Positions 3,582 to 35,794 of a DNA stretch of 35,833 nt are shown here, one piece after another. Source of the stretch: a virus (Duplodnaviria > Heunggongvirae > Uroviricota > Caudoviricetes); IMG/VR virus record IMGVR_UViG_2565956762_000002, positions 1 to 35,833 of that record; one strand, written 5' to 3'. How positions within the stretch are numbered: position 1 is the stretch's first letter; each line of letters begins with the position of its first letter. The position numbers and the translations under genes were made by a program. Under the pieces are notes generated by a model. It was not told where the DNA came from. It saw only the letters and a program-made list of their open reading frames with translations, and made no database searches.

Positions 3582-4091
3582 ATGTTTGATTACAAGATTT
3601 CCAAACATCCGCATTTTGATGAAGCCTGTAGAGCTTTTGCACTACGTCACAATATGGCAAAGCTGGCAGAACGTGCAGGAATGAATGTTCAGACACTGCG
3701 AAACAAACTCAATCCAGATCAACCGCATCAGCTCACCGCACCAGAAATCTGGTTGCTTACCGATCTGACTGAAGATTCAACGTTGGTAGACGGTTTTCTG
3801 GCACAGATTCATTGTCTGCCATGTGTTCCGATTAATGAGGTGGCAAAAGAGAAACTGCCGCATTACGTCATGAGTGCAACTGCAGAGATCGGGCGTGTTG
3901 CTGCAGGTGCGGTATCTGGCGATGTAAAAACCAGTGCAGGTCGTCGTGATGCTATCAGCAGCATTAACTCTGTAACACGACTGATGGCGCTGGCGGCTGT
4001 TTCATTGCAGGCCCGTTTACAGGCTAATCCTGCGATGGCAAGTGCAGTTGATACTGTAACTGGCCTCGGTGCGTCATTCGGTTTGCTGTGA
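3582..4091 (+). CDS. cII: CII-like lysogeny establishment regulator (186 CII family)
   Basis: 169-aa ORF with RBS GGGGG upstream. Sequence (MFDYKISKHPHFDEACRAFALRHNMAKLAERAGMNVQTLRNKLNP ...) matches my recollection of 186 CII closely; same length and position. Confidence 0.88.
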   Translation: MFDYKISKHPHFDEACRAFALRHNMAKLAERAGMNVQTLRNKLNPDQPHQLTAPEIWLLTDLTEDSTLVDGFLAQIHCLPCVPINEVAKEKLPHYVMSATAEIGRVAAGAVSGDVKTSAGRRDAISSINSVTRLMALAAVSLQARLQANPAMASAVDTVTGLGASFGLL

Positions 4092-4905: not shown

Positions 4906-5132
4906 TGGCTGATGCAATGGATCTTGTACAGCAGCGCGTTGAAGAAGAACGCCAGCGCCATATTCGTGCTGCCCGTGCCAAAACGCCGGGCGTGTCCCGC
5001 GTGCTTTGCATTGAGTGTGAAGCGCCAATTCCGCCAGCACGCCGCCGCGCCATTCCAGGTGTGCAGCTTTGCATTACCTGTCAGGAAATCGCAGAGCTGA
5101 AAGGCAAACATTACAACGGAGGTGCTGTATGA
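4905..5132 (+). CDS. TraR/DksA-family C4 zinc-finger protein
   Basis: 75 aa with CxxC-(17)-CxxC (CIECEAPIPPARRRAIPGVQLCITC), typical of phage TraR-like proteins; start overlaps the previous stop. Confidence 0.8.
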   Translation: MADAMDLVQQRVEEERQRHIRAARAKTPGVSRVLCIECEAPIPPARRRAIPGVQLCITCQEIAELKGKHYNGGAV

Positions 5133-5986
5133 GCACCATCCTGAAATGGGCGGGAAATAAAACCGCCATTATGTCCGAACTGAAAAAACACCTTCCTGCT
5201 GGCCCGCGACTGGTTGAACCTTTCGCGGGTTCCTGTGCTGTGATGATGGAGACGGATTACCCCAGCTATCTGGTTGCGGATATTAATCCTGATTTAATCA
5301 ACCTCTATAAAAAGGTTGCCGCTGATTGTGAATCGTTTATATCTCGCGCCAGAGTTTTATTTGAGATCGCAAACAGGGAGGTGGCTTATTACAACATAAG
5401 GCAGGAGTTTAATTACTCCACTGAAATTACTGATTTCATGAAAGCGGTATATTTCCTGTATCTCAATCGTCACGGTTACCGTGGTTTATGTCGCTATAAC
5501 AAGAGCGGGCATTTCAACATTCCCTACGGTAATTATAAAAATCCGTATTTCCCTGAAAAAGAAATTCGCGCATTTGCAGAAAAAACCCAGCGGGCAACGT
5601 TTATTTGCGCCAGCTTTGATGAAACGCTGGCGATGTTGAAGGCGGGGGATGTGGTGTATTGCGATCCGCCGTATGACGGCACGTTTTCCGGTTATCACAC
5701 TGACGGCTTCACTGAAGATGACCAGTATCACCTGGCATCCGTTCTTGAACATCGGTCATCAGAAGGACATCCGGTCATTGTTTCTAACAGTGACACATCC
5801 CTGATCCGTTCGCTGTATCGCAATTTTACTCACCACTACATCAAGGCAAAACGCAACATCGGTGTGGCAGCTGGAGAGGGTAAATCAGCAACAGAAATCA
5901 TTGCTGTTTCCGGGCCGCGCTGCTGGGTGGGATTTGATTATTCGCGTGGCGTGGACAGTTCTGCCGTGTACGGAGTACGTGCATGA
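5129..5986 (+). CDS. dam: DNA adenine methyltransferase (Dam-like, N6-A MTase)
   Basis: N-terminal SAM motif region LKWAGNK, FAGSCAV and catalytic DPPY ([10 protein letters not shown]). Start chosen at ATG 5129 ([11 protein letters not shown]) rather than the upstream in-frame 5069. Confidence 0.9.
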
Positions 5987-8397
5987 GTCATGCCGATATG
6001 AACAACTGCTGCGGCTTTAACGAGGCTGCCGCAGCATTCTCATGGAACAGCCCGAAAAAGGCCATTAACCCTTATCTGGACCCGGCGGAAGTTGCGCCGG
6101 TTTCTGCGCTTTCAAACCTGATCACTCTGTACGCTGCCGATAACGAGCAGGAACAACTGCGCCGCGAGGCACTGAGTGATCAGGTCTGGGAGCGTTATTT
6201 CTTTAATGAATCCCGTGATCCTGTCCAGCGCGAAATGGAGCAGGATAAGCTAATTAGCCGGGCAAAGCTGGCGCATGAGCAGCAGCGTTTTAATCCAGAC
6301 ATGGTCATTCTGGCGGATGTCAACGCCCAGCCTTCCCATATCAGCAAGCCGCTGATGCAACGTATTAAATACTTCAGCAACCTGGGCAGGCCAAAGGCCT
6401 ATTCCCGCTATTTGCGTGAGACGATTAAGCCATGCCTGGAACGACTGGAGCATGTACGCGACAGCCAGCTATCTGCATCTTTTCGTTTTATGGCAAGCCA
6501 TGAAGGGCTGGACGGTCTGCTGAGCCTGCCTGAAATGAGTCAGGATCAGGTGAAACGCCTGTCCACCCTTGTCGCTGCGCATATGAGCATGTGTCTTGAT
6601 GCCGCTTGTGGTGATTTGTACGCCTCCGATGATGTTAAGCCGGAAGAAATCCGCAAGACATGGGAAAAGGTGGCAGCAGAAACCCTGCGACTGGATGTCA
6701 TACCGCCTGCGTTTGAGCAACTCCGCCGGAAAAGAAACCGCCGCAAACCTGTGCCCTATGAACTCATTCCGGGTTCGCTGGCGCGTATGCTGTGCGCCGA
6801 CTGGTGGTATCGGAAATTATGGAAGATGCGTTGCGAATGGCGGGAAGAGCAGTTGCGTGCTGTCTGTCTGGTCAGCAAAAAAGCATCTCCCTATGTCAGC
6901 TATGAAGCCGTGATGCATAAACGTGAGCAGCGCCGTAAGTCGCTGGAGTTTTTCCGTTCTCATGAACTGGTGAACGAAGACGGCGACACGCTGGACATGG
7001 AGGATGTGGTAAACGCCAGCAGCAGCAACCCTGCGCATCGCCGCAATGAGATGATGGCCTGTGTTAAAGGCCTGGAGCTTATCGCGGAAATGCGCGGTGA
7101 CTGCGCCGTTTTCTACACCATCACCTGTCCGTCACGTTTCCATTCCACGCTAAATAACGGCAGGCCCAACCCGACCTGGACAAATGCGACGGTAAGACAA
7201 AGCAGTGATTATCTGGTTGGCATGTTTGCTGCATTTCGTAAGGCGATGCACAAAGCCGGATTGCGCTGGTATGGCGTGCGGGTGGCTGAGCCGCATCATG
7301 ACGGTACAGTTCACTGGCACCTGTTGTGTTTTATGCGCAAAAAAGATCGCCGCGCCATTACTGCTTTGTTGCGTAAGTTTGCCATTCGTGAAGACCGCGA
7401 GGAGCTGGGGAATAACACGGGACCACGCTTTAAGTCTGAGTTGATTAACCCGCGCAAAGGAACGCCGACAAGCTACATCGCGAAATATATCAGTAAGAAC
7501 ATTGACGGGCGTGGTCTGGCTGGCGAGATCAGCAAGGAAACGGGTAAATCCCTGCGTGATAACGCTGAATACGTGAATGCCTGGGCGTCTCTGCATCGTG
7601 TTCAGCAATTCCGCTTCTTTGGCATTCCGGGGCGTCAGGCTTACCGTGAACTGCGATTGCTGGCTGGTCAGGCGGCAAGGCAACAGGGTGACAAAAAAGC
7701 AGGTGCGCCGGTACTGGATAACCCGCGCCTTGATGCAATCCTGGCTGCTGCTGATGCTGGTTGTTTTGCCACCTACATCATGAAGCAGGGCGGCGTACTG
7801 GTTCCCCGTAAATATCACCTCATCAGAACTGCTTATGAAATCAACGAAGAGCCGACCGCCTATGGCGATCACGGCATTCGTATTTATGGCATCTGGTCAC
7901 CTATTGCAGAGGGCAAGATCTGCACTCATGCCGTGAAGTGGAAAATGGTTCGTAAGGCCGTTGACGTTCAGGAGGCGGCAGCCGACCAGGGCGCTTGCGC
8001 CCCTTGGACTCGTGGCAATAACTGTCCCCTTGCTGAAAATTTGAACCAACAAGGGAAAGACAAATCAGCTGATGGGGATACCAGGACGGACATTACCCGC
8101 ATGGATGACAAGGAGTTGCACGATTACCTGCACAGTATGAGCAAAAAAGAGCGCCGGGAACTGGCTGCAAGGTTACGCCTGGTGAAACCGAAACGGCGTA
8201 AAGACTACAAACAGCGAATTACAGACCATCAGCGACAGCAGCTCGTCTATGAACTGAAGTCAAGAGGATTTGATGGCAGCGAGAAAGAGGTCGATCTGCT
8301 CCTTCGCGGTGGCAGTATTCCGTCAGGAGCAGGCCTGCGTATCTTCTGTCGGAACCAGCGTTTGCAGGAAGATGATAAGTGGCGAAACCTGTATTAA
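5983..8397 (+). CDS. A: Replication initiation protein A (rolling-circle initiator, P2 gpA family)
   Basis: 804-aa ORF at the conserved position after the early genes; HxH motif (VHWHLLCF) and size consistent with P2/186 A. Confidence 0.9.
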
Positions 8398-8749: not shown

Positions 8750-8983
8750 ATGCGCATTGAAATAATGATCGATAAAGAGCAGAAGATTAGCCAGTCTACC
8801 CTGGACGCCCTTGAATCCGAGCTTTACCGCAATCTGCGCCCCCTGTATCCCAAGACGGCGATCCGCATTCGCAAAGGCAGTGCCAACGGTATCGAGTTGA
8901 CCGGCTTAAAACTTGATGAGGATAAGCAGCGGGTAATGGAAATTATGCAGAAGGTGTGGGAAGACGACAGCTGGCTGCATTAA
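8750..8983 (+). CDS. DinI-family protein
   Basis: MRIEIMIDK ... QRVMEIMQKVWEDDSWL resembles DinI; the frame is open upstream to 8678, overlapping the preceding ORF. Confidence 0.75.
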   Translation: MRIEIMIDKEQKISQSTLDALESELYRNLRPLYPKTAIRIRKGSANGIELTGLKLDEDKQRVMEIMQKVWEDDSWLH

Positions 8984-9117
8984 GAAACGTTGCTGGCGTC
9001 TGAACTTGTTTCTGGCGTCAGCAAGGTTGAACAACGAGCCCTTGCGAGGCGTTAGCTCTGTAGTGCATGTCTATGCTGCATGAGATCGCATGATCGTTTG
9101 AGGATCGTTTTTGCTAA

Positions 9118-9143
9118 GGCCCGCCAGAACTGGTGGGCTTTTG
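9118..9143 (+). terminator. Rho-independent terminator of the early operon
   Basis: GGCCCGCCAG-AA-CTGGTGGGC hairpin followed by TTTT. Confidence 0.5.
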
Positions 9144-9187
9144 CGTAGATCATGCAGGTGCATGAAAACCACTACATAAAGCGGGCA

Positions 9188-9206
9188 GGCGTGGCGGGGA
9201 TACGAG
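9188..9206. other. Candidate cos (cohesive-end) sequence
   Basis: GC-rich 19-mer GGCGTGGCGGGGATACGAG resembling the 186/P2 cohesive-end sequence as I recall it (GGCGTGGCGGGGAAAGCAT), about 13-15 of 19 positions. Confidence 0.35.
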
Positions 9207-9292
9207 CGCGCGCTTAGCCATGAATCTGTGGACTTGATGGTGAAGCTAAGGTAATTTGTATCAAAAAAAGCAGTACAATAGGGATATATAGA

Positions 9293-10372
9293 GTGGCGTT
9301 ATCAGATGCGTTAATTACAGTAAATCAAGCCGAACGGGGCGGTGAAAACGCGTTGAGAGGCTTTTCATATCAAGCCTCTTGGGGGATAAATTATTTACTT
9401 GAGAAACAAAAAGAAAAGGAGAAATATTTATTTCTATTTGAATATCATGACGATATTCTTGTATTGAATTCATCTGTTTCTCCGACTAGTGCTGAGTTTA
9501 TCCAAGTTAAAACAAAAAAAGATGGTAAATGGACACTCGCAGCAATAGTGAACGCAACAAAAGCTAAACCTAAATCATTTGTTGCAAAACTATATGACCA
9601 TTTCTATCAATTCGTTGGTCACGAAATTTATATGGTTCTGTTATCGAATGCTGGATTCGATTTCTTAAATGATAATAACGAAAAAGGTAGTGATCTTAAT
9701 AATGAGCATAAGGAAATTATAATTAGTAAGGTTCAAGAGCAGCTAAATACTAAAAAAGAAGTTCCTCTTGATAAAATAAAATTTAAAACATCTGATCTTA
9801 GTTTGTTAGATCCTAACTCACATTTATACGGGAAAGTTGCAGTTTTTTTGAATTCTTACTTTGGGGATGATCATGGTATTAATTCAACAGCATTCACTAA
9901 ATTATTAATCAATAAATGTAATGAGAAGGTTAGTGTTGCTTCTAGTGATATCAAAACTTTTGAAGATTTAGTACTAAAGAAAGGTATATCTTCAGAATTT
10001 GTAACTGATTTATTATCTGGACTCATTGCAAGCATAAAAATAACGCCAAAATGGGAACAGGTTTGTATGTTGCTTGGTACTTTCTCAGATCCTTATGAGG
10101 GGATTAAATTACAATCAGTTTTTACACGCATATCAATAAAAGTGCTCAATGTCAATTCAATATACTATCTTTATTTTCTGGAATTTCAATCGGCTCTAAA
10201 GATTATAGAGCATTATCGTGAGATACCTGTTCGAGACCTCTTCTTTACACTCGAAAAAACAATTGCAGCGGGGGGCGGGGATTTCTCTTTATTAAATCAA
10301 GAAGAGAAATTTATGATTGCTATATATGCAATTATAAAGTTGACTTTTGAGGATGTTTCTTATGAAGAATAA
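9293..10372 (+). CDS. Candidate defense effector: predicted PD-(D/E)xK-like (Cap4/DUF4297-like) nuclease
   Basis: 359-aa ORF with GTG start at 9293 in an AT-rich island. N-terminal motifs RGFSYQASW ... EYHDDILVL ... EFIQVKTKK resemble a restriction-endonuclease-like D...(E/Q)xK core. Confidence 0.7.
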   Translation: MALSDALITVNQAERGGENALRGFSYQASWGINYLLEKQKEKEKYLFLFEYHDDILVLNSSVSPTSAEFIQVKTKKDGKWTLAAIVNATKAKPKSFVAKLYDHFYQFVGHEIYMVLLSNAGFDFLNDNNEKGSDLNNEHKEIIISKVQEQLNTKKEVPLDKIKFKTSDLSLLDPNSHLYGKVAVFLNSYFGDDHGINSTAFTKLLINKCNEKVSVASSDIKTFEDLVLKKGISSEFVTDLLSGLIASIKITPKWEQVCMLLGTFSDPYEGIKLQSVFTRISIKVLNVNSIYYLYFLEFQSALKIIEHYREIPVRDLFFTLEKTIAAGGGDFSLLNQEEKFMIAIYAIIKLTFEDVSYEE

Positions 10373-12020
10373 CGTTAAATTTAAAAATATAAAAATACTC
10401 TCATTAAGAGACAGAAAAGCTTTTTCTTATGAGTTTTCAGAAGGGGTTAACTTCATATATGGTACAAATGATGTTGGTAAATCAAGCCTGATTAAAAGTC
10501 TTTATTACACATTAGGTGGAGATTTAAGGCTTGATGATGCTTGGAAATCAGATGATATAGTTACACTGGTGGAAATTAATAACGGGGAAAATGATTTTAT
10601 TTTTTTACGTTATAAAAAGATTATTGGTGTCTTTGATTTGAAGAATGATGATCTAGTCGTGTATAACACGATTTCGTCATTAGCATCTCGTGTTTCAAAT
10701 ATATTTGGTTTTAAACTGGAATTACATAATAAATATACGGGTGCTACGACTCAGGCAAACCCTGCTTGTTTGTTTGCCCCATTCTTTATTGATCAGGATG
10801 AAGGATGGAAAGCGGTGATAAATTCTTTCGAAAACATGAGTATGTACTCAGAATGGCAAAAAAACATTCTTTACTATCACTCTGGAATTAAGCCAAAGGA
10901 ATATTATACAGTTCAAGGGAAAATCAAAGAAATTAAAGTTAAAATTTCAGAGTTAGATGGTTTTGTTAAGGTTCTAAAAAGAAGCAAAAGTAAGATTGAT
11001 GAATCTTTTGGCGTGGTTTTATTTGATGTTGATTTGGATTTTTATAAATCAAAGTTGGAACGTATATTAAATGAATATTCTAATTTGAATTTAGTTCAGA
11101 CAGAATATAGATTGAATCTTTTGAGGTTATATTCTAGGAAGAATTTCCTTGAGAGTGAACTCAAAGAGATAACTGCGATTATTGATAATGAATTTGAGAT
11201 TTCGAATTTTCGAGATGATAATGTTGCTTATTCAGTAAATGAATATAATTATATAAACCATAGAGATGAAATGCTCAAAAACATTGCTGTTCTTGCAGAT
11301 GAGAAAAGCAAGATTGAGGAAAATATTCCTAAATTGAATCAAAAGCTAGAAGAGTCAAGGGCTGCTTCAGAGGCGTTGCAGGCGCTGATTTTAGAAACTC
11401 AATCGGAAATAACGCTTCATGATGTTATTAAATCTGCTGCATACCATGAAATTGAATCTACTTTTATTTCACAGTTAGATGAGTTATTCGTTGAGATTGG
11501 TCGAAAAGAAGGCGAGTTGACAGAGTTACAAGAAGAATTAGAAGTATACAATGATAAGAAAAGAACTGTTAAAATAAATGACTGTTTCAAAGAGTATTTC
11601 GCTAAAGCTCTTAAAGAGCTTGGTGTCGAAAATACAAAGGTAGGTGGCCTTAGTAGTTATAATAATATTACTAAGGGCAAGACTGGTAGTCGAGGTCCTC
11701 GAGGTATATTTGCATTTCACTACGCGCTGCTTAGTGTTATGAAAAGCAACGCTTCAGTTGAGAATATGCCTATAGTAATAGACTCTCCAAAGCAACAAGA
11801 TTTGGATCCAGAGCATACGCATAAGCTTATAAAACTATGCTTGGATGGGTTTTCCCTTACAAATCAGATTATTATTGGAACTGTTGGTTATGAGAGTTTC
11901 ATGGATGGTTTTAATAGCATCAAACTTGAAAATAAATATCATCTTTTAAATGATGAACATTATGATAATGTTTATTCTCAATTAATGCCATTGTTTGAAC
12001 GGGTGATACTTTCAAGATGA
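10362..12020 (+). CDS. Candidate defense partner: SMC/Rad50-like ABC ATPase with long coiled-coil
   Basis: ATG at 10362 overlaps the upstream stop (ATGAAGAATAA); GAGGA lies upstream. N-terminal P-loop GTNDVGKSS, about 250 aa of heptad-rich coiled-coil, and a C-terminal head with MPIVIDSPKQQDLDPEHTH. Confidence 0.75.
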   Translation: MKNNVKFKNIKILSLRDRKAFSYEFSEGVNFIYGTNDVGKSSLIKSLYYTLGGDLRLDDAWKSDDIVTLVEINNGENDFIFLRYKKIIGVFDLKNDDLVVYNTISSLASRVSNIFGFKLELHNKYTGATTQANPACLFAPFFIDQDEGWKAVINSFENMSMYSEWQKNILYYHSGIKPKEYYTVQGKIKEIKVKISELDGFVKVLKRSKSKIDESFGVVLFDVDLDFYKSKLERILNEYSNLNLVQTEYRLNLLRLYSRKNFLESELKEITAIIDNEFEISNFRDDNVAYSVNEYNYINHRDEMLKNIAVLADEKSKIEENIPKLNQKLEESRAASEALQALILETQSEITLHDVIKSAAYHEIESTFISQLDELFVEIGRKEGELTELQEELEVYNDKKRTVKINDCFKEYFAKALKELGVENTKVGGLSSYNNITKGKTGSRGPRGIFAFHYALLSVMKSNASVENMPIVIDSPKQQDLDPEHTHKLIKLCLDGFSLTNQIIIGTVGYESFMDGFNSIKLENKYHLLNDEHYDNVYSQLMPLFERVILSR

Positions 12021-12026
12021 AAATAT

Positions 12027-12044
12027 GGCCTCAGAAATGAGGCC
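12027..12044. terminator. Bidirectional terminator hairpin between convergent genes
   Basis: Perfect hairpin GGCCTCA-GAAA-TGAGGCC between the cassette ATPase (+) and portal Q (-). Confidence 0.55.
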
Positions 12045-12060
12045 GACTAAATTATCTTAA

Positions 12061-13095
12061 TTAAATTTTTAGTTCGTAGGTTGAAAAATTTATAATTCTA
12101 TCGTTTAACCAATTATTTATTTCTAGAAACATTTTTTGTAGAGGCAGTAGCTCATTTCGTACAAATACTGTGCTTGCCTTTTCGATATCCCCAAACCCCC
12201 CGACATTATTAGGCATTATCCCCATCATTTGTGGCGGCACACGATGCGCCGCCATCATGTCGTCCCGGCTCACGTTCTTGATGTTTAAAAACTCATCCTT
12301 CGCCGCCACTTCTGACAACGGGATAATCTGAAGCCCGTCCTTTTTACCGTTAGGCGAGTACATAAACAGGTTACGGAAGTTACCAGGACCTTTGGCGCTT
12401 TTCATCGCATTGCGGAGGTTGTTCACATCCTCCTGGTTCTGCGCAGCATCGGTCATGTACATGATGAAGCCTGCATGACTGCCGTTAATGTAATACTTGC
12501 GGCGGAACAGCGTGGCGGACTCGTTGAGCAGAGCTGACGGAATGGCAGAAAGATAACCGGGCAGGCCGTAGATCTCCTGGTTAATGTCCGGTTCCATCAG
12601 ATGAAAAATGCTGCCTTTCGTGAACTGATACGGCTGGGTTGTCATACCGTATTGCACAAACCAGTAGGTATCCAGGTCTAACCCGCGTCGGGTGTATTTT
12701 GCCAGTGCAGGCTCAAGGGCGATAACTTCACCGAAGCGGTTCGTGCGTTTCTCCAGGTAGGCGTTACCAAAAACCAGATAGTCCTGCACAAAACGCGAAA
12801 AAGCCTGCTGGCTGAGCAGCGGGTGAGGGATGTAGGTGCTGGTCAGAATGTTGCACTTCACTGCAATCGGTGAGCTGTGATGCACGGCGGCGCGGAAGGT
12901 TCGCGCCAGTCCGTCGAAACTCACAGGCGGCTCATACCAACGATCCATCTGTACGCATTCCACATAGTCCAGCAGTTCGCGGCGGTCCAGAACAGGAACG
13001 GGATCACCGAAGCTGAATGCTTCGGCTGAAGTCTGGCTTTTATGCTGGATCTGTTTCGTCGACGCAGCGCGGTTCTTCTTACTCTTTCCCATCAA
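12061..13095 (-). CDS. Q: Portal protein (P2 gpQ family)
   Basis: 344 aa, same length as P2 Q; divergent from O-N-M as in P2. Confidence 0.92.
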   Translation of the reverse strand: MMGKSKKNRAASTKQIQHKSQTSAEAFSFGDPVPVLDRRELLDYVECVQMDRWYEPPVSFDGLARTFRAAVHHSSPIAVKCNILTSTYIPHPLLSQQAFSRFVQDYLVFGNAYLEKRTNRFGEVIALEPALAKYTRRGLDLDTYWFVQYGMTTQPYQFTKGSIFHLMEPDINQEIYGLPGYLSAIPSALLNESATLFRRKYYINGSHAGFIMYMTDAAQNQEDVNNLRNAMKSAKGPGNFRNLFMYSPNGKKDGLQIIPLSEVAAKDEFLNIKNVSRDDMMAAHRVPPQMMGIMPNNVGGFGDIEKASTVFVRNELLPLQKMFLEINNWLNDRIINFSTYELKI

Positions 13096-23301: not shown

Positions 23302-24704
23302 GCACAAAATTTTATACCCTGCTGACGGATATTGGCGCGGCGAAACTTGCCAGCGCCGCCGCGCTCGGTGTGCCGCTAAAAATTACCCATATGGCGGTCG
23401 GCGATGGCGGCGGAGTATTGCCAACGCCAGACTCAAAGCAGACTGCACTGGTAAATGAGAAACGCCGGGCTGCGCTGAATATGCTCTATATCGACCCGCA
23501 GAACAGCAGTCAGATTATTGCCGAACAGGTGATCCCTGAAAACGAGGGCGGTTGGTGGATACGTGAAGTGGGCTTGTTTGATGAGTCCGGGGCATTGATT
23601 GCCGTGGGCAACTGCCCGGAAAGCTATAAGCCGCAACTGGCTGAAGGTAGCGGGCGCACTCAGACCGTGCGCATGGTGCTGATTACCAGCAGCACGGACA
23701 ATATCACCCTGAAAATCGACCCTGCTGTAGTGCTGGCAACCCGCAAGTATGTGGATGACAAGGCACTGGAGCTGAAGGTGTACGCGGATGATCAGATGGC
23801 AAAACATCTTGCCGCACCGGACCCGCATTCACAGTATGCACCCAAAGAAAGTCCGACGTTTACCGGGACACCCAAAGCGCCAACGCCAGCAGCAGGGAAT
23901 AACACCACGCAGATTGCGACCACCGAGTTTGTTCAGGCGGCTCTGACGGCTCTTATTAATGGTGCGCCAGCCACGCTGGACACGCTGAAAGAAATAGCCG
24001 CAGCCATTAACAATGATCCGAAATTCAGTACCACCATTAACAATGCGCTGGCACTGAAAGCGCCGCTGTCGAGTCCGACACTCACCGGAACGCCAACCGC
24101 ACCTACTGCGGCACAGTCGGTCAACAATACACAAATTGCCACCACGGCATTTGTGAAATCGGCGATTGCGGCAATGGTGGGGTCTGCACCTGCGGCACTG
24201 GATACACTGAACGAACTGGCGGCGGCGCTGGGGAATGACCCGAACTTTGCCACGACAATGCTTAATGCACTGGCAGGTAAACAACCGCTGGACAATACGC
24301 TGACTAATTTGAGTGGAAAGGATGTAACTGGTCTTCTCACATACCTTGGTTTAGGAGAAGCGGCGAAAAGGGATGTGGGCACAGGAGATAATCAGATACC
24401 GGATATGGGAGCATTCGCTTCTGGTTCGGGATGGTTCAGGCTACCAGGTGGATATATTGTTCAGTTTGGCACTTTTTCAGGAAACACGACCCGCTTTATC
24501 AGTGGACACTTCCCTATACCATTCCCTAATCAGCCGATGGTTTCAGTCAGTGTTATGTCTGATGCCGTTCAGTCAGACCCGTCGAATCCTGCCCCGCAGG
24601 TTTTGTCTGTAAATTTTGAACATATCAGTAATTCAGCGTGGCGTGTGGCAACCAGTGATATCTCACAGCAATACAGATTCAGTTATATTTCGATAGGACG
24701 GTAG
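23298..24704 (+). CDS. H: Tail fibre protein H (currently expressed C-terminal variant)
   Basis: 468 aa; N-terminus matches P2 H as recalled (MSxKF ... MAVGDGGG ... ESYKPxLAEGSGR). The C-terminal about 120 aa lies inside the invertible segment. Confidence 0.88.
   Translation: MSTKFYTLLTDIGAAKLASAAALGVPLKITHMAVGDGGGVLPTPDSKQTALVNEKRRAALNMLYIDPQNSSQIIAEQVIPENEGGWWIREVGLFDESGALIAVGNCPESYKPQLAEGSGRTQTVRMVLITSSTDNITLKIDPAVVLATRKYVDDKALELKVYADDQMAKHLAAPDPHSQYAPKESPTFTGTPKAPTPAAGNNTTQIATTEFVQAALTALINGAPATLDTLKEIAAAINNDPKFSTTINNALALKAPLSSPTLTGTPTAPTAAQSVNNTQIATTAFVKSAIAAMVGSAPAALDTLNELAAALGNDPNFATTMLNALAGKQPLDNTLTNLSGKDVTGLLTYLGLGEAAKRDVGTGDNQIPDMGAFASGSGWFRLPGGYIVQFGTFSGNTTRFISGHFPIPFPNQPMVSVSVMSDAVQSDPSNPAPQVLSVNFEHISNSAWRVATSDISQQYRFSYISIGR
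24334..24359. other. Invertase crossover site (left), Hin/Gin/Cin-type
   Basis: TTCTCACATACCTTGGTTTAGGAGAA; it is the inverted repeat of the site at 26210-26235 and resembles hix/gix sites. Confidence 0.6.
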
Positions 24705-24706
24705 AA

Positions 24707-25147
24707 ATGCAGAAATATATTTTCAGTGCCGATAAAAATGCGTTTTTCCCTGTGGAGCTTAAAATCGCTTATCAGGAATCCGGCGAATGGCCCGATGATG
24801 GAATCGAAATTGACGACACTGTTGCCGCCGAATTTATGAAGGAAGCACCAGAAGGAAAATACAGATGTGTCATCGACGGAATGCCTGCATGGATTGATAT
24901 TCCACCGCCGACTCATGAGGAACAAATTGCCGCAGCCGAACTGGAAAAGCAGCAATTGATTAATCAGGTCAACGAATACATAAACAGTAAGCAATGGCCT
25001 GGTAAAGCAGCGATTGGTCGCCTGAAAGGTGAGGAACTGGCGCAATATAATTTGTGGCTGGATTATCTGGACGCACTGGAACTGGTTGATTCCTCCAGTG
25101 CTCCAGATATTGAATGGCCTACGCCTCCGGCAGTTCAGGCCAGATGA
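24707..25147 (+). CDS. G: Tail fibre assembly chaperone (G, expressed orientation)
   Basis: 146 aa directly after H; Tfa-like C-terminus. Confidence 0.8.
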   Translation: MQKYIFSADKNAFFPVELKIAYQESGEWPDDGIEIDDTVAAEFMKEAPEGKYRCVIDGMPAWIDIPPPTHEEQIAAAELEKQQLINQVNEYINSKQWPGKAAIGRLKGEELAQYNLWLDYLDALELVDSSSAPDIEWPTPPAVQAR

Positions 25148-25721
25148 CATCCGGTGCGGTGCTGGTATCTGTTGCCGTCACCGCGTCAATGTAATCCAGC
25201 ACGGCGTTAAGTCGGGTTGTTTCTGCCTGCGTCAGCTTCCGCCCGGCCCGTAATTTCAGTTGAATCAGACTGATGGAAGCCATTGCTGCATCAATCAGTG
25301 ACTGGCGCTGTGCTTCTGCCGCTTCTACTGCGGCGCTATGCTGTGCCTCAGTATCCGTCACCCATTTCTCACCATCCCATTTATCATATGGCGTTAACGG
25401 GGCGATAGTGGTTGTATTTTCAGGGTAATCACCCGGAGCTGTGATTTCTTTCGATTCTCCTGTTTCGGTGCTATAGATGATTTCACCGCGATGGTCTGGT
25501 ACATATTCCCATGAGTTACAATCTGCAGAACGGCAGATTGCATAACCAGCTTTATGTGTAACTGGTGCATCTAAACAAGAACATGCCGGGATACCGACGC
25601 CAACGGCAAGATATTCTGTTGATGATGAAATGTATTCCCGTGTCGTGTTGTCATAGTTATAGACGGTAATATCACCCGCTACTGTGGCAATAAATTCACT
25701 GTTTAATTTTGCCTGTGTCAT
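25119..25721 (-). CDS. Alternative tail fibre assembly chaperone (silent orientation)
   Basis: 200 aa on the minus strand, converging on G with a 29-bp overlap; Tfa-like C-terminus (LDYIDAVTATDTSTAPDVIWPELP). Confidence 0.75.
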   Translation of the reverse strand: MTQAKLNSEFIATVAGDITVYNYDNTTREYISSSTEYLAVGVGIPACSCLDAPVTHKAGYAICRSADCNSWEYVPDHRGEIIYSTETGESKEITAPGDYPENTTTIAPLTPYDKWDGEKWVTDTEAQHSAAVEAAEAQRQSLIDAAMASISLIQLKLRAGRKLTQAETTRLNAVLDYIDAVTATDTSTAPDVIWPELPEA

Positions 25722-26235
25722 TATGCAGCCCTCACGATGTAGTTAAATGCAATGTTGCGCGGGCGGGTTTCAGTGCTAATATTCGCTGCATTGTCAGAAG
25801 CAACCCCACGAGTGCTGATAGCTCTTACTGCTGAAGGTAGGCTTTGAGGCTCCCGGTCAGTATAGGCAATCCCCCCATCCCCTCCAGTTACTAGCGGACC
25901 ATAATTCCCGGTCTGACCAATAGTTGACGATGTTGTATTTGAACCTGTCCAGAACTCTTGGTTATGTGAGTGGTCTCTGAGTGAATGGCCTTGAGATGAA
26001 AGCAGCGCACGCCCGTTGTCGATACCACGACTATCATCCCATCCACGGATAAACTCACCGCGTAAATCAGGTAATTTATTTGTTGGATAAGCCTTTGCCA
26101 GTTCCGGGTATTCTTCAGCAGAAAATGCCGCACCGTTGCATTTCAGCCAGCCTGTTGGCGGTGTGGCTGAAGGCCATGGAACAGGCACACCAACAGGTAA
26201 TGCAGAGCCTTCTCCCAAACCAACGTTTATGAAAA
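25721..26235 (-). CDS. Alternative tail-fibre C-terminal segment (promoterless, P2 H-type ending)
   Basis: Minus-strand ORF ending NIAFNYIVRAA, as in P2 H; begins at the right crossover site (LGEG ... PVPWPS) and would fuse to the H constant region after inversion. Confidence 0.65.
26210..26235. other. Invertase crossover site (right)
   Basis: TTCTCCCAAACCAACGTTTATGAAAA; about 20 of 26 positions match the reverse complement of 24334-24359. Confidence 0.6.
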
Positions 26236-26290
26236 TGCAGAGATAATGGCTAACTGGCATCATCCACGGTTTTTATTCAGGGGATTGATC

Positions 26291-26857
26291 ATGCTTATTG
26301 GCTATGTACGCGTGTCAACAAATGACCAGAACACCGATTTGCAACGTAATGCACTGAACTGCGCGGGATGTGAGCGGATTTTTGAGGATAAAATCAGTGG
26401 CACTAAGTCCGACAGACCGGGGCTTAAAAAACTGCTCAGGACACTATCGGCAGGAGACACTCTGGTTGTCTGGAAGCTGGACAGGTTGGGGCGCAGTATG
26501 CGGCATCTTGTTACACTGATAGAAGAGTTGCGTCAGCGTGGCGTGAATTTCCGAAGCCTGACTGACAGTATTGATACCAGCACCCCAATGGGCCGTTTCT
26601 TTTTTCATGTCATGGGGGTCCTGGCTGAAATGGAACGCGAACTGATAGTTGAACGTACCATGGCAGGGCTGGCTGCAGCTCGTGCCAAAGGCAGAGTAGG
26701 TGGACGCCGTCCTAAGTTGACCACCGAACAGTGGGCACAGATTGGGCGTTTACTCGAGGCCGGAGAATCAAGACAGCGTATTGCACTGATTTTTGATGTA
26801 GGCGTTTCTACCATTTATAGAAAATTTCCGGCAAATAAGAGCAATGAATCCCCCTGA
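26291..26857 (+). CDS. Serine DNA invertase (Hin/Gin/Cin/Pin family)
   Basis: MLIGYVRVSTNDQNTDLQ with catalytic Ser and a C-terminal HTH; start at ATG 26291. Confidence 0.9.
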   Translation: MLIGYVRVSTNDQNTDLQRNALNCAGCERIFEDKISGTKSDRPGLKKLLRTLSAGDTLVVWKLDRLGRSMRHLVTLIEELRQRGVNFRSLTDSIDTSTPMGRFFFHVMGVLAEMERELIVERTMAGLAAARAKGRVGGRRPKLTTEQWAQIGRLLEAGESRQRIALIFDVGVSTIYRKFPANKSNESP

Positions 26858-33837: not shown

Positions 33838-33927
33838 TTCTTCGCAATGGAGAACTTTTAAGTTTTCAAAATGGAATAATGCGGTATCATTATTGTGAAT
33901 TTAGCAAAAATGGGGAGAACTCGAAAA

Positions 33928-34146
33928 ATGATGATTTGCCCACTGTGTGGAAGTGCCGCCCATACTCGCAGCAGTTTTCAGGTATCTTCATTGACCAAAG
34001 AGCGTTACAACCAGTGCCAGAACATTAACTGCAGCCATACTTTTGTTACCCATGAAACTTTTGTTCGTTCGATTGCAACGCCAAAAGAGTCAAATCCGGT
34101 TCAGCCGCATCCTCATAAATTTAAACAGGTGGGTTTGCCGATTTAA
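33928..34146 (+). CDS. ogr: Ogr/Delta zinc-finger late-gene activator
   Basis: MMICPLCGSAAHTRSS ... ERYNQCQNINCSHTF is the Ogr C2C2 zinc finger; start placed at 33928 rather than the upstream in-frame ATGs. Confidence 0.85.
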   Translation: MMICPLCGSAAHTRSSFQVSSLTKERYNQCQNINCSHTFVTHETFVRSIATPKESNPVQPHPHKFKQVGLPI

Positions 34147-34209
34147 ATGGCGACATAACTACATGATTTAAAACTATACTTTTCTATAAGTTGAGGTTAA
34201 ATTAACAAT

Positions 34210-34388
34210 GCCTGACGTTAGCGGGGATTTATCCCCACTCCGTAGATATGTAGTTTGTCGCTTTGCGACTGCGGACCGATTACCTGATTGCCATGTAATC
34301 GGACGCCGACTTGTTAAGCTTTCTGGGCTAACTGGTTGTTATTTTTTATTTAGTTAGGGCCATGCGCTTGCGCTAAGAGACGTCAGGT
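34210..34388 (+). ncRNA. Candidate structured non-coding RNA upstream of the RT (retron msr/msd-like or DRT-type)
   Basis: 8-bp inverted repeat CCTGACGT (34211-34218) / ACGTCAGG (34380-34387) flanks about 160 nt with hairpins at 34223-34236, 34257-34269 and 34276-34302 (8-bp stem CCGATTAC/GTAATCGG). Confidence 0.25.
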
Positions 34389-34407
34389 ATCTATGGAGGA
34401 ACAAGTT

Positions 34408-34581
34408 ATGGATACAAACGAACTTGGCTTAGTTAAGGCGCGTGTTGAACTGATCACCGCTATGCTCAAATGCGCAACCGCGTTTGTTGGCTTAGTTGGT
34501 GCGGTTTACGCCGTTCTTAACATGGCCTTCAACTACAACAATTTAACTCATGACAATAGAAGTTCAAAGGTGGGAAGATAA
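34408..34581 (+). CDS. Small single-TM protein (57 aa), possible RT-associated effector
   Basis: ATG at 34408 preceded by GGAGG at 8 nt; hydrophobic segment ATAFVGLVGAVYAVLNMAF; the 3' end overlaps the RT start. Confidence 0.4.
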   Translation: MDTNELGLVKARVELITAMLKCATAFVGLVGAVYAVLNMAFNYNNLTHDNRSSKVGR

Positions 34582-35323
34582 ATTTGAGATTAAGCCCGGG
34601 GTTTGGGTTTATGTCCCAAGCGTTGAGGCACGTAAAGTCGGAGGGAAGATACTTCAGGCTGTCAGAAACAAGTGGATTCCGCCACTCTATTTTTACCATC
34701 TAAGAACTGGTGGGCATCTTAAAGCTGCCAGATTACACTTAAAAAGTGATTTTTTTGCCGTTGTTGATATTAAACATTTTTTTCAGTCAACGAGCCGTAG
34801 TCGTATCACCCGTGATCTAAAGAGCTACTTCACCTATTCTCAAGCGCGGGAAATCTCAACATTTTCAACTGTAAGAAACTTGTCCCATAGTCCACATAAG
34901 CATGTCCTCCCTTTTGGTTTTGTTCAATCTCCAATACTTGCAACCCTCTGCTTAGATAAAAGTTATTTTGGTAGCTTACTACGCCGATTGAACAAACATC
35001 ATGATCTCAAGCTAAGTGTGTTTATGGATGATGTGATCATCTCGTCAAACGATTTGGCCCAATTACAAGCGGCTTACGACGAAGCACTAGTGGCAATGCG
35101 TAAATCTGGTTATCAAGCCAACATGAGTAAAACTCAGGCACCATCGTCAAAGATTAGCGTGTTTAATTTAACTTTGAGTAAGGGAGTTATGAAAGTCACA
35201 TCTCAGAAAATGAGTGACTTCCTGATTGATTTCTATTCAAGCAATTATGAGCCGCACAGAATAGGGGTCAAAAACTACGTCGAAGCTGTTAATCCAGGGC
35301 AAGCGAAACTCTTTAAGTTGTAA
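34550..35323 (+). CDS. Compact reverse transcriptase (257 aa)
   Basis: RT motifs in order: RKVGGKIL, VVDIKHFFQS, PFGFVQSPILATLCL, FMDDVIISS (YxDD-like), then SKT and KVTS. Confidence 0.75.
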   Translation: MTIEVQRWEDKFEIKPGVWVYVPSVEARKVGGKILQAVRNKWIPPLYFYHLRTGGHLKAARLHLKSDFFAVVDIKHFFQSTSRSRITRDLKSYFTYSQAREISTFSTVRNLSHSPHKHVLPFGFVQSPILATLCLDKSYFGSLLRRLNKHHDLKLSVFMDDVIISSNDLAQLQAAYDEALVAMRKSGYQANMSKTQAPSSKISVFNLTLSKGVMKVTSQKMSDFLIDFYSSNYEPHRIGVKNYVEAVNPGQAKLFKL

Positions 35324-35397
35324 TTGCGATCGCATGTAGTAGCAACTGGGCTTGACTGAATGCCTGCCGCCATTTTGCCGCCACTACCAAAGAAAAA

Positions 35398-35421
35398 GGG
35401 GCTACGCTTTCACGTAGCCCC
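35398..35421. terminator. Hairpin terminator downstream of ssrA (also terminates the RT transcript)
   Basis: GGGGCTACG-CTTTCA-CGTAGCCCC flanked by T-runs on both strands. Confidence 0.6.
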
Positions 35422-35431
35422 TTGATTTATT

Positions 35432-35794
35432 TGGTGGAGCTGGCGGGAGTTGAACCCGCGTCCGAAATTCCTACATCCTCGGTACTACATGCTTAGTCAG
35501 TCTTTACATTCGCTTGCCAGCTGCGGACGGACACGCCACTAACAAACTAGCCTGATTAAGTTTTAACGCTTCAACCCCAGGCAGGGCTTCCACGCGATCT
35601 CTTTTGGGTTTGACCTCTCTTGATCCCCGTCCTAAGAGCGGAGGCTAGGGAGAGAGGGCTCTAAGCAGGTTATTAAGCTGCTAAAGCGTAGTTTTCGTCG
35701 TTTGCGACTATTTTTTGCGGCTTTTTACGAGGCCAACCGCCCCTCGGCATGCACCTTGGGTTTCGCAAATCCCGTCGAATCCAGAATCAGCCCC
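35432..35794 (-). ncRNA. ssrA: tmRNA (SsrA), 363 nt
   Basis: Minus strand reads GGGGCTGATTCTGGATTCGACGGG ... GGACGCGGGTTCAACTCCCGCCAGCTCCACCA, the enterobacterial ssrA 5' and 3' ends as recalled; length 363 nt. Confidence 0.95.

Follow-up and report, generated by a model that had tools for sequence, protein, structure and literature searches.

The reference for type I Lamassu is the two-protein LmuAB of Bacillus cellulasensis NIO-1130 (PDB 9ux7/9ux8; Doron 2018; bioRxiv 10.1101/2025.06.23.660979). Type II Lamassu, or DdmABC, is represented by the LmuACB complexes of Vibrio cholerae (PDB 9nyg/9uxh) and Salmonella (PDB 9hqu/9hqx), and it differs in that LmuC joins as a third subunit and LmuB is longer, at ~630–660 aa. 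Short Lamassus are described by Haudiquet et al. (PMC12663957) as having an LmuB of ~600 aa with a Walker B motif of the form hhhhD[Q/S/T/E]. The zinc hook varies from zero to two copies in their LmuBs, so it is not strictly defining, and VcLmuB has none (PMC12663957).

More distant is Rad50/SbcC-Mre11/SbcD, the proposed source of Lamassu, whose ABC ATPase heads likewise carry an antiparallel coiled coil and which also recognizes DNA ends. Its coiled coil is far longer and includes a zinc hook, its nuclease partner is Mre11/SbcD rather than a Cap4-type PD-(D/E)xK enzyme, and it is a housekeeping complex. PMC9122126 and PMC13586616 describe a cos-proximal defense hotspot in P2-like prophages. 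In P2 itself the cargo genes tin and old lie between gpA/orf91 and cos.

Here we analyze a two-gene cassette in a viral DNA of 35,833 nucleotides, referred to as the window. The cassette is, with high confidence, a type I Lamassu (the short, two-gene form that lacks LmuC) with a Cap4 effector, carried as a moron in the gpA–gpQ hotspot of a P2-like Klebsiella prophage. It differs from Bacillus LmuAB in its gammaproteobacterial host and its P2-like prophage carrier, and the identity of its proteins to those of Bacillus is only ~13–20%. What the analysis shows is membership of the family, the domain architecture, the conserved catalytic and ATPase motifs, the fold, that the two genes form a module, that selection on them is purifying, and where the cassette lies.

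The cassette and its borders

The features of the locus are as follows.

9118–9143, plus strand: intrinsic terminator hairpin (dG -21.5 kcal/mol, z -3.85), followed by UUUU
9188–9206, strand not assigned: 19-nt cos cohesive-end sequence, GGCGTGGCGGGGATACGAG
9212–9292, plus strand: conserved 5′ leader and putative promoter region, from alignment across contexts
9293–10372, plus strand: lmuA, GTG start, 359 aa (ORF call)
10362–12020, plus strand: lmuB, ATG start, 552 aa (ORF call)
12027–12044, both strands folded: GC-rich hairpin closing the module on its 3′ side, GGCCTCAgaaaTGAGGCC, from folding and a terminator scan

The first-pass annotation had described two overlapping, AT-rich ORFs, and this description is accurate. 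lmuA and lmuB share 11 nt, ATGAAGAATAA, with the lmuB ATG at 10362 inside the overlap and the lmuA TAA at 10370–10372. A GAGGA Shine-Dalgarno sequence stands 8–9 nt 5′ of that ATG, and the two genes are probably translationally coupled, as had been proposed. The family profile gives no support to a TTG at 10347 as an alternative lmuB start, and in an E. coli copy of 99.7% identity RefSeq PGAP has annotated these same two CDSs. The GC content is 32.1% in the cassette versus 54.9% in the phage backbone (12061–33837). No further ORF longer than 60 aa is found in 9293–12020, a PADLOC search of the adjoining ORFs returned zero matches, and neither the ORF list nor the PADLOC results for the neighbors show an lmuC-like ORF next to the two genes or between them. 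An Rfam scan of the window gave a tmRNA as its only match.

On the left, the 9118–9143 hairpin ends the early operon (gpA, a small ORF and DinI) and is part of the P2-like backbone rather than of the cassette; the segment from 9100 to 9227 is common to over 1200 P2-like prophages of E. coli with different cargo. The cos sequence aligns with P2 cosR/cosL (GGCGAGGCGGGGAAAGCAC) and with the flanking ggtgcat..aaaacc..aagcgggc, and both the E. coli and the Salmonella copy have it 5′ of lmuA. The cargo slot is bounded by it on the left. Since cos is upstream of the cassette, the cassette lies between cos and Q. The earlier placement at the tin/old position thus holds for the gpA–gpQ hotspot and fails for the side of cos. 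That is, the P2 cargo (old, tin and others) is likewise AT-rich and exchangeable, located between gpA and gpQ and adjoining cos, but old and tin are on the gpA side and transcribed leftward, whereas the cassette is on the Q side and transcribed rightward. The Old and Tin proteins are unrelated to LmuA and LmuB.

The leader is conserved in a Salmonella P2-like copy and in a non-P2 Providencia island, and partly in a Cronobacter lambdoid copy. It includes a Shine-Dalgarno-like AGGGA (9280–9284) and a -10-like TACAAT (9274–9279), the latter seen on manual inspection upstream of lmuA without a -35 element. A promoter scan from cos to the lmuA GTG detected no consensus sigma-70 promoter, and for this reason the leader is put forward only as a putative promoter region.

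Both hairpins said to bracket the cassette are real. The one at 12027–12044 folds with a dG of -13.7 on the plus strand and -12.8 on the minus strand (z about -4.3 to -4.5), but the terminator scan matches it on the minus strand, where the T-run is, and the T-tract of the plus strand is poor. Given this minus-strand T-run, the hairpin is also at the place of P2 tQ, which terminates the P-Q operon. The hairpin is kept downstream of lmuB in the Providencia and Cronobacter contexts, and the 3′ hairpin travels with the Lamassu module.

LmuA, LmuB and the family assignment

Protein 1 is matched over its full length by the PADLOC LmuA model (E 1.7e-142), and Pfam places Cap4_nuclease at aa 15–212 with 117 bits versus a gathering cutoff of 26. 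The motifs RGFSYQ (22–27), EYHDDILVL (50–58) and EFIQVKTKK (68–76) are where the first-pass annotation had them, and among homologues the invariant residues include Y51 H52 D53 D54 and Q71 V72 K73, in the region of the nuclease triad. The N-terminal part of LmuA (~aa 15–212) is thus a predicted Cap4-type (Cap4/DUF4297) PD-(D/E)xK dsDNA nuclease. The C-terminal part, ~aa 213–355, is a helical domain. By analogy with solved Lamassus, LmuA is predicted to be the effector, its C-terminal domain serving for LmuB docking and oligomerization. A single-sequence phmmer search with LmuA against the PDB found nothing; profile and structure searches did reach solved Lamassu chains, with ~13% identity to solved Bacillus LmuA in the structure alignment. 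The PHROGs search with LmuA returned no family.

Protein 2 matches PADLOC LmuB (PDLC00255) at E 2.3e-253 over residues 3–550 of 552. Its Walker A GTNDVGKSS (34–42), Q-loop DQD (144–146) and Walker B PIVIDS (470–475) are invariant among homologues, in the case of PIVIDS across a set of 35, and a signature-like TGSRGPR occupies 441–447. The AF2 model (pLDDT 84.6) contains the anticipated coiled coil as antiparallel helices at ~179–419 with an apex at ~278–287, and has low confidence at the apex loop, 280–284. Foldseek with this model retrieves LmuBs as its best matches (9ux7_A, 1.1e-23), then Rad50/SMC proteins; identity to solved Bacillus LmuB is ~20% in the structure alignment. LmuB is thus a short SMC/Rad50-like ABC ATPase and the predicted sensor. 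Single-sequence phmmer against the PDB finds Rad50 P-loop matches only, PHROGs places LmuB in a family of ‘unknown function’, and NCBIfam has no specific model for LmuA or LmuB, giving only sub-threshold Rad50/SMC/RecF matches.

The locus has the features of the Lamassu family, namely an LmuB ATPase with a coiled coil, an LmuA effector with a C-terminal domain, and adjoining lmuA and lmuB genes. The earlier proposal of a nuclease and an SMC-like ATPase forming an anti-phage-type cassette in a variable cos-proximal region is supported, and the resemblance to Lamassu proves to be correct. What is not supported is the idea of divergent heads and of a cassette that may be a new variant or distinct system. 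The first-pass annotation had itself stated that matches of both proteins to established Lamassu models would make the cassette known rather than novel; both do match such models with strong full-length scores, and the solved type I structures are matched as well. The cassette is an already catalogued Lamassu, neither divergent nor new.

Regarding type, no lmuC is present, and therefore the architecture is the two-gene type I. The LmuB of 552 aa with Walker B PIVIDS (hhhhDS) agrees with the description of short Lamassus. A profile built from LmuB homologues matches 9ux7_A (‘Lamassu protein LmuB’, type I) at E 2.3e-50 (8–546/5–555), and its similarity to type II LmuB is marginal (6e-5 and 4e-4 for 9hqu_A and 9ny5_D). 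By these profile scores LmuB appears to be nearer type I than type II, in line with the ‘clade S’ criterion. Type II Lamassu/DdmABC was rejected, as no LmuC (DdmB) ORF lies beside or between lmuA and lmuB. An OLD-family system was also considered and rejected. One type I feature, the zinc hook, is lacking: BcLmuB has a CxxC hook, and none is found in the window LmuB or in its homologues of at least 36% identity.

Proposed mechanism and alternative readings

From the solved B. cellulasensis LmuAB and Vibrio/Salmonella LmuACB we infer by homology the stoichiometry, trigger, abortive outcome, lysogen expression and target phages of the present system. The type I mechanism is taken from bioRxiv 10.1101/2025.06.23.660979 and PMC12663957; according to these sources an LmuA1:LmuB2 complex, activation by DNA ends and ATP, an LmuA tetramer and an anti-phage phenotype are known for BcLmuAB and VcLmuACB only. 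In the lysogen, lmuA and lmuB would be co-expressed, with translation coupled through the 11-nt overlap. An LmuB dimer would bind one LmuA monomer by way of its helical C-terminal domain, keeping the nuclease inactive. The LmuB ATPase heads would scan DNA and sense an invading phage or plasmid by its dsDNA ends or replication intermediates. LmuA would then be set free to tetramerize through its C-terminal domain, allowing the Cap4 nuclease domains to dimerize, and the active nuclease would degrade DNA non-specifically, aborting the infection.

The hook that BcLmuB dimerizes by is absent from the window LmuB; it follows that the apex interface must differ. This raises the possibility, which we regard as the less probable one, that the cassette is a minimal Lamassu, without LmuC or zinc hook, in which LmuB dimerizes and LmuA is sequestered through an apex interface seen in no solved Lamassu, and in which activation may not follow the models from Bacillus and Vibrio. 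Equally tentatively, such a reading would extend to the enterobacterial and vibrio subclade that holds this cassette. The distribution of the hook is consistent with it, in that a single CPxC near residue 294 is confined to homologues of at most 29% identity and to BcLmuB, as are the lack of lmuC in every context examined and the low model confidence at the apex loop. On the other hand, hook number is known to vary among short LmuBs, VcLmuB included (PMC12663957), the remainder of LmuB aligns end to end with BcLmuB, and there is no sign of another trigger or effector logic. A silent or decaying remnant, without current function in the lysogen, is improbable. AT-rich cargo is often silenced by H-NS, and the missing consensus promoter and a frameshifted lmuA in E. 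coli L73 fit such a state; but both ORFs are intact with every catalytic motif, dN/dS is about 0.1, and conservation across contexts extends to the 5′ leader and the Shine-Dalgarno sequence.

The remaining two readings assign the cassette to another function or family, and type I Lamassu is preferred over both. LmuB is distantly related to Rad50/SbcC, and SbcCD has been proposed as the origin of Lamassu (PMC12663957), so that a housekeeping or repair module acting in Rad50/SbcC-like recombination for the P2-like phage itself might be imagined. It is very improbable and was rejected: the Mre11/SbcD partner is absent, the cassette is mobile, AT-rich foreign cargo missing from P2 and from the more than 1200 flank-sharing E. 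coli prophages, and lambdoid prophages, P4-like satellites and plain chromosomal sites carry it just as well. Least probable of all is another Cap4-nuclease defense, of the Hachiman HamA or CBASS Cap4 kind, beside an unrelated ABC ATPase; both the profile searches and the gene contexts refute it. LmuA does have weak N-terminal similarity to HamA (PADLOC E 4.7e-11; PDB 8zue_A E 1.2e-3) and structural similarity to Cap4. Against this, the LmuA model scores 130 orders of magnitude better and covers the whole protein, C-terminal domain included, and the locus has no helicase gene, such as the HamB that accompanies HamA in Hachiman. In CBASS, Cap4 is fused to a SAVED sensor and a CD-NTase gene is nearby; Pfam finds no SAVED domain in LmuA and no cyclase (CD-NTase) is encoded in the window region. 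Moreover, the ATPase is a full-length LmuB, and its pairing with LmuA is kept in all contexts.

Spread, selection and annotation

Beyond the window, P2-like, P4-like and lambdoid elements and an integrase island carry the LmuAB module, and it is also present at chromosomal sites. The lmuA-lmuB order, with overlap or adjacency, is kept in six unrelated contexts, and those six contain no third conserved gene and no lmuC. A megablast search of a plasmid collection gave no match to the cassette. Together with the minimal reading, and with the same reserve, we suggest that the module may be compact and self-contained, comprising the 5′ leader, two genes and the hairpin in ~2.84 kb, and may move as such between elements and islands. 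It is under purifying selection, with dN/dS versus the Salmonella copy of 0.12 for lmuA and 0.08 for lmuB. The P2 hotspot table of Rousset et al. 2022 (PMC9122126) holds a 99%-identical copy from E. coli L73 (NZ_CP033378), labeled ‘... DUF4297 + DinI’. In this strain lmuA is split in two by the frameshift, so the Lamassu system can decay.

The records of Klebsiella phage Kp4845-2 and its relatives were deposited unannotated, and RefSeq names the proteins only as ‘dsDNA nuclease domain-containing protein’ and ‘AAA family ATPase’; naming the genes lmuA/lmuB (type I Lamassu, Cap4 effector) thus has a use. The new label serves defense-system censuses and the prediction of phage-therapy resistance in K. 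pneumoniae lysogens, and beyond correct annotation its importance is small. The subclade of LmuBs with neither hook nor LmuC could provide a compact model of dimerization in short Lamassus. A point for specialists is that the cargo slot of this P2-like lineage is on the Q side of cos.

The two genes and their products

The cassette consists of two overlapping genes, as follows.

9293–10372, + strand, lmuA ORF (protein 1), GTG start, 359 aa
10362–12020, + strand, lmuB ORF (protein 2), ATG start, 552 aa

The 11 nt overlap (ATGAAGAATAA) and the low GC content noted in the first-pass annotation are both confirmed, the cassette having 32.1% GC versus 54.9% for the structural-gene backbone, and all of the peptide motifs listed there are found in place. 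A GAGGA Shine-Dalgarno sequence lies 5′ of the lmuB start. The two hairpins said to bracket the cassette are also real by folding, in that both fold far better than shuffled controls. The minus strand carries the T-run of the hairpin at 12027–12044, and the hairpin sits at the site equivalent to P2 tQ; it is therefore probably the terminator of the cassette and of the convergent P-Q operon alike. No consensus promoter for the cassette was found.

Protein 1 matches the PADLOC LmuA model PDLC00243 (E 1.7e-142) over residues 1–356 of 359, and scores 117 bits against Pfam Cap4_nuclease (PF14130, formerly DUF4297), for which the gathering cutoff is 26.2. Across 13 aligned homologues, with identities as low as 20%, residues Y51-H52-D53-D54 and Q71-V72-K73-T74-K75 do not vary; they are the PD-(D/E)xK-type core that a Cap4 nuclease should have. 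The AlphaFold2 model is confident (pLDDT 83.5). The earlier reading of protein 1 as a nuclease stands, and the nuclease fold is present.

Protein 2 matches the PADLOC LmuB model PDLC00255 (E 2.3e-253) over residues 3–550 of 552. Its Pfam matches are to SMC_N and AAA_23 only, both sub-threshold, which accounts for the uninformative public annotation; in the E. coli copies, PGAP annotates both CDSs, under the names “dsDNA nuclease domain-containing protein” and “AAA family ATPase” or “hypothetical protein”. A profile built from 35 LmuB homologues aligns end to end with PDB 9ux7_A, “Lamassu protein LmuB” (E 2.3e-50), whereas its matches to type II LmuB chains reach only 6e-5 to 4e-4. The AlphaFold2 model of LmuB, likewise confident (pLDDT 84.6), gives the same order in Foldseek: 9ux7_A is best (1.1e-23), then come type II LmuBs, then Rad50, SMC and SbcC. 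The motifs are a Walker A GTNDVGKSS, a Q-loop DQD and a Walker B PIVIDS. Thus, the first-pass annotation was right to call the cassette Lamassu-like; its further suggestion of a new or distinct system fails, as both proteins match established Lamassu models.

Position at cos and mobility of the pair

The prophage in the window is P2-like, with genes in the order integrase, CI-type repressor, Dam methylase, gpA-like replication endonuclease (5983–8397), a small ORF, DinI and the cassette, followed by portal Q and terminase P, both minus-strand, and then capsid and tail genes. The orphan Dam-type N6-adenine methyltransferase gene (5069–5986, +) is directly 5′ of the gpA-like gene and overlaps it, and the DinI-family gene (8750–8983, +) is the last early-operon gene ahead of the terminator and cos. 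Both belong to the conserved backbone common to E. coli relatives. Twelve GenBank records without annotation, of Klebsiella phage Kp4845-2 and similar, match the cassette region at 100% identity, and 11 of the 5426 complete genomes of E. coli have the cassette at ≥99% identity.

Positions 9188–9206 (GGCGTGGCGGGGATACGAG) correspond by alignment to the P2 cohesive end, as does their left flank to that of P2; the comparison covered P2 (loci L002 and L003) and loci L004 (4829–4847) and L010 (about 3838–3856). P2 has tin and old in the interval from gpA/orf91 to cos, and its gap from cos to Q is only ~160 nt and contains terminator tQ. In the window, it is the cos-to-Q interval that holds the cassette, on the opposite side of cos from tin and old. 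The hotspot is broadly defined as the cos-proximal region from gpA to gpQ (PMC9122126; PMC13586616), so that the placement “at the P2 tin/old position” is right at the level of the hotspot but imprecise in detail.

The exchangeable cargo slot of this P2-like lineage is on the Q side of cos, which would put it at the far left of the packaged genome, that of P2 tin/old being on the gpA side. Escherichia phage vB_EcoM-813R9, with flanks in common, has a Hypoth_Ymh-domain protein gene in the same slot, and the terminator-plus-cos segment, 9100–9227, is common to >1200 E. coli genomes, which diverge beyond it. Extra genes on the gpA side of cos, a 225-aa ORF without Pfam hits in the Salmonella relative and an HNH endonuclease gene in the E. 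coli L73 relative, indicate that two sub-slots flank cos. At the 3′ end of Q (12061–12200, −), the last ~25 codons are AT-rich (29–37% GC) and differ from those of a phage with other cargo, whose Q is otherwise 94% identical; this suggests that the boundary of recombination in cargo exchange falls within this end of the gene.

LmuA (357–371 aa), directly before or overlapping LmuB (549–562 aa), recurs in six other contexts, and none of these has a third conserved gene beside the pair.

Salmonella P2-like prophage, same slot, again 3′ of cos
Providencia integrase/AlpA island
Cronobacter lambdoid prophage, between replication genes and antiterminator Q
Vibrio cholerae, plain chromosomal site
Serratia P4-like satellite, directly after the satellite's cos
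Integrase-bearing island on a contig of a mine-drainage metagenome

In the Serratia satellite, the Lamassu is of type I and the LmuB identity is 40%. The 3′ hairpin is conserved in non-P2 contexts, as are the ~80 nt 5′ of lmuA (9212–9292), which include a −10-like hexamer and a conserved AGGGA Shine-Dalgarno sequence; therefore, the mobile unit is roughly 9212–12045. Compared with the Salmonella copy, lmuA has a dN/dS of 0.12 and lmuB one of 0.08, so both genes are under purifying selection.

Lamassu type, prior record and predicted action

No lmuC is found at the locus, nor is there room for one, since the two ORFs occupy the whole cos-to-Q interval; the small ORFs adjoining the cassette have no defence-model matches. 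The LmuC-less architecture is that of type I, or clade S (PMC12663957; bioRxiv 10.1101/2025.06.23.660979), and the window LmuB agrees with “short” Lamassu (PMC12663957) in length and in the hhhhD[S] form of Walker B. A CxxC zinc hook is absent from the window LmuB and from every homologue at ≥36% identity, whereas the solved Bacillus BcLmuB and more distant homologues have one CPxC near residue 294. The hookless form is within known variation, as a published survey records zero, one or two zinc hooks in short LmuBs (PMC12663957). No solved structure represents a Lamassu that lacks both the hook and LmuC. That this subclade uses a dimerisation or sequestration interface so far unseen is conceivable though rather unlikely.

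Neither the type of system nor the hotspot is new. PADLOC models that predate 2023 recognise LmuA and LmuB with near-maximal score. In the supplementary tables of Rousset et al. 2022, the P2 hotspot of E. coli L73 (NZ_CP033378) is entered as “... DUF4297 + DinI”, with accessions; these are the proteins under our 99.1%-identical match (H10), and thus the cassette was already catalogued as P2-hotspot cargo. Our literature search found no paper with an experimental test of this orthologue. In the L73 copy (locus L013, 1695–2775), lmuA is annotated as two overlapping CDSs of 579 and 525 nt. The gene is apparently split by a frameshift, and the system is therefore probably inactivated in that strain.

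The present analysis establishes membership, architecture, motifs, fold, modularity and selection; the complex, its trigger, the outcome and gene expression in the lysogen are inferred, the mechanism by homology. An LmuB dimer would sequester one LmuA monomer via the LmuA C-terminal domain. The LmuB heads, under ATP control, would bind dsDNA ends or replication intermediates of the invader. LmuA, once freed, would tetramerise via its C-terminal domain, and dimerisation of the Cap4 domains would lead to non-specific DNA cutting and abortive infection.

A candidate cargo gene, a reverse transcriptase and a predicted host-range segment

A 506-aa ORF (1–1521, −; ~31% GC) adjoins the integrase gene (1534–2547) at the int-att end of the prophage. 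Sequence searches of Pfam, PADLOC and PDB gave no match; the sole match is to PHROG 14259, “unknown function” (E 4.7e-165). Records of the Kp48xx phages contain the ORF, and a few other Klebsiella phages have it at <60% identity. A minor P2 defence hotspot has been reported at int-att (PMC13586616), making the ORF an uncharacterised candidate cargo gene.

A 257-aa reverse transcriptase (34550–35323, +; Pfam RVT_1, 76 bits; FMDD motif) is encoded in a lower-GC stretch, 33900–35400, between an ogr-like zinc-finger gene (33895–34146) and the tmRNA gene ssrA (35432–35794, −). Its best PADLOC matches are to retron-type RTs but score low (RT_VI, 62 bits). A retron RT would usually be longer, and Rfam detects no msr or other RNA apart from the tmRNA. 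In the phage collection, it occurs only in these Klebsiella phages.

A resolvase/invertase gene (26246–26857, +) adjoins oppositely oriented tail-collar and tail-fibre-assembly genes (24683–26263, −), and the segment 24683–26857 is a predicted Gin/Cin-type invertible host-range segment.
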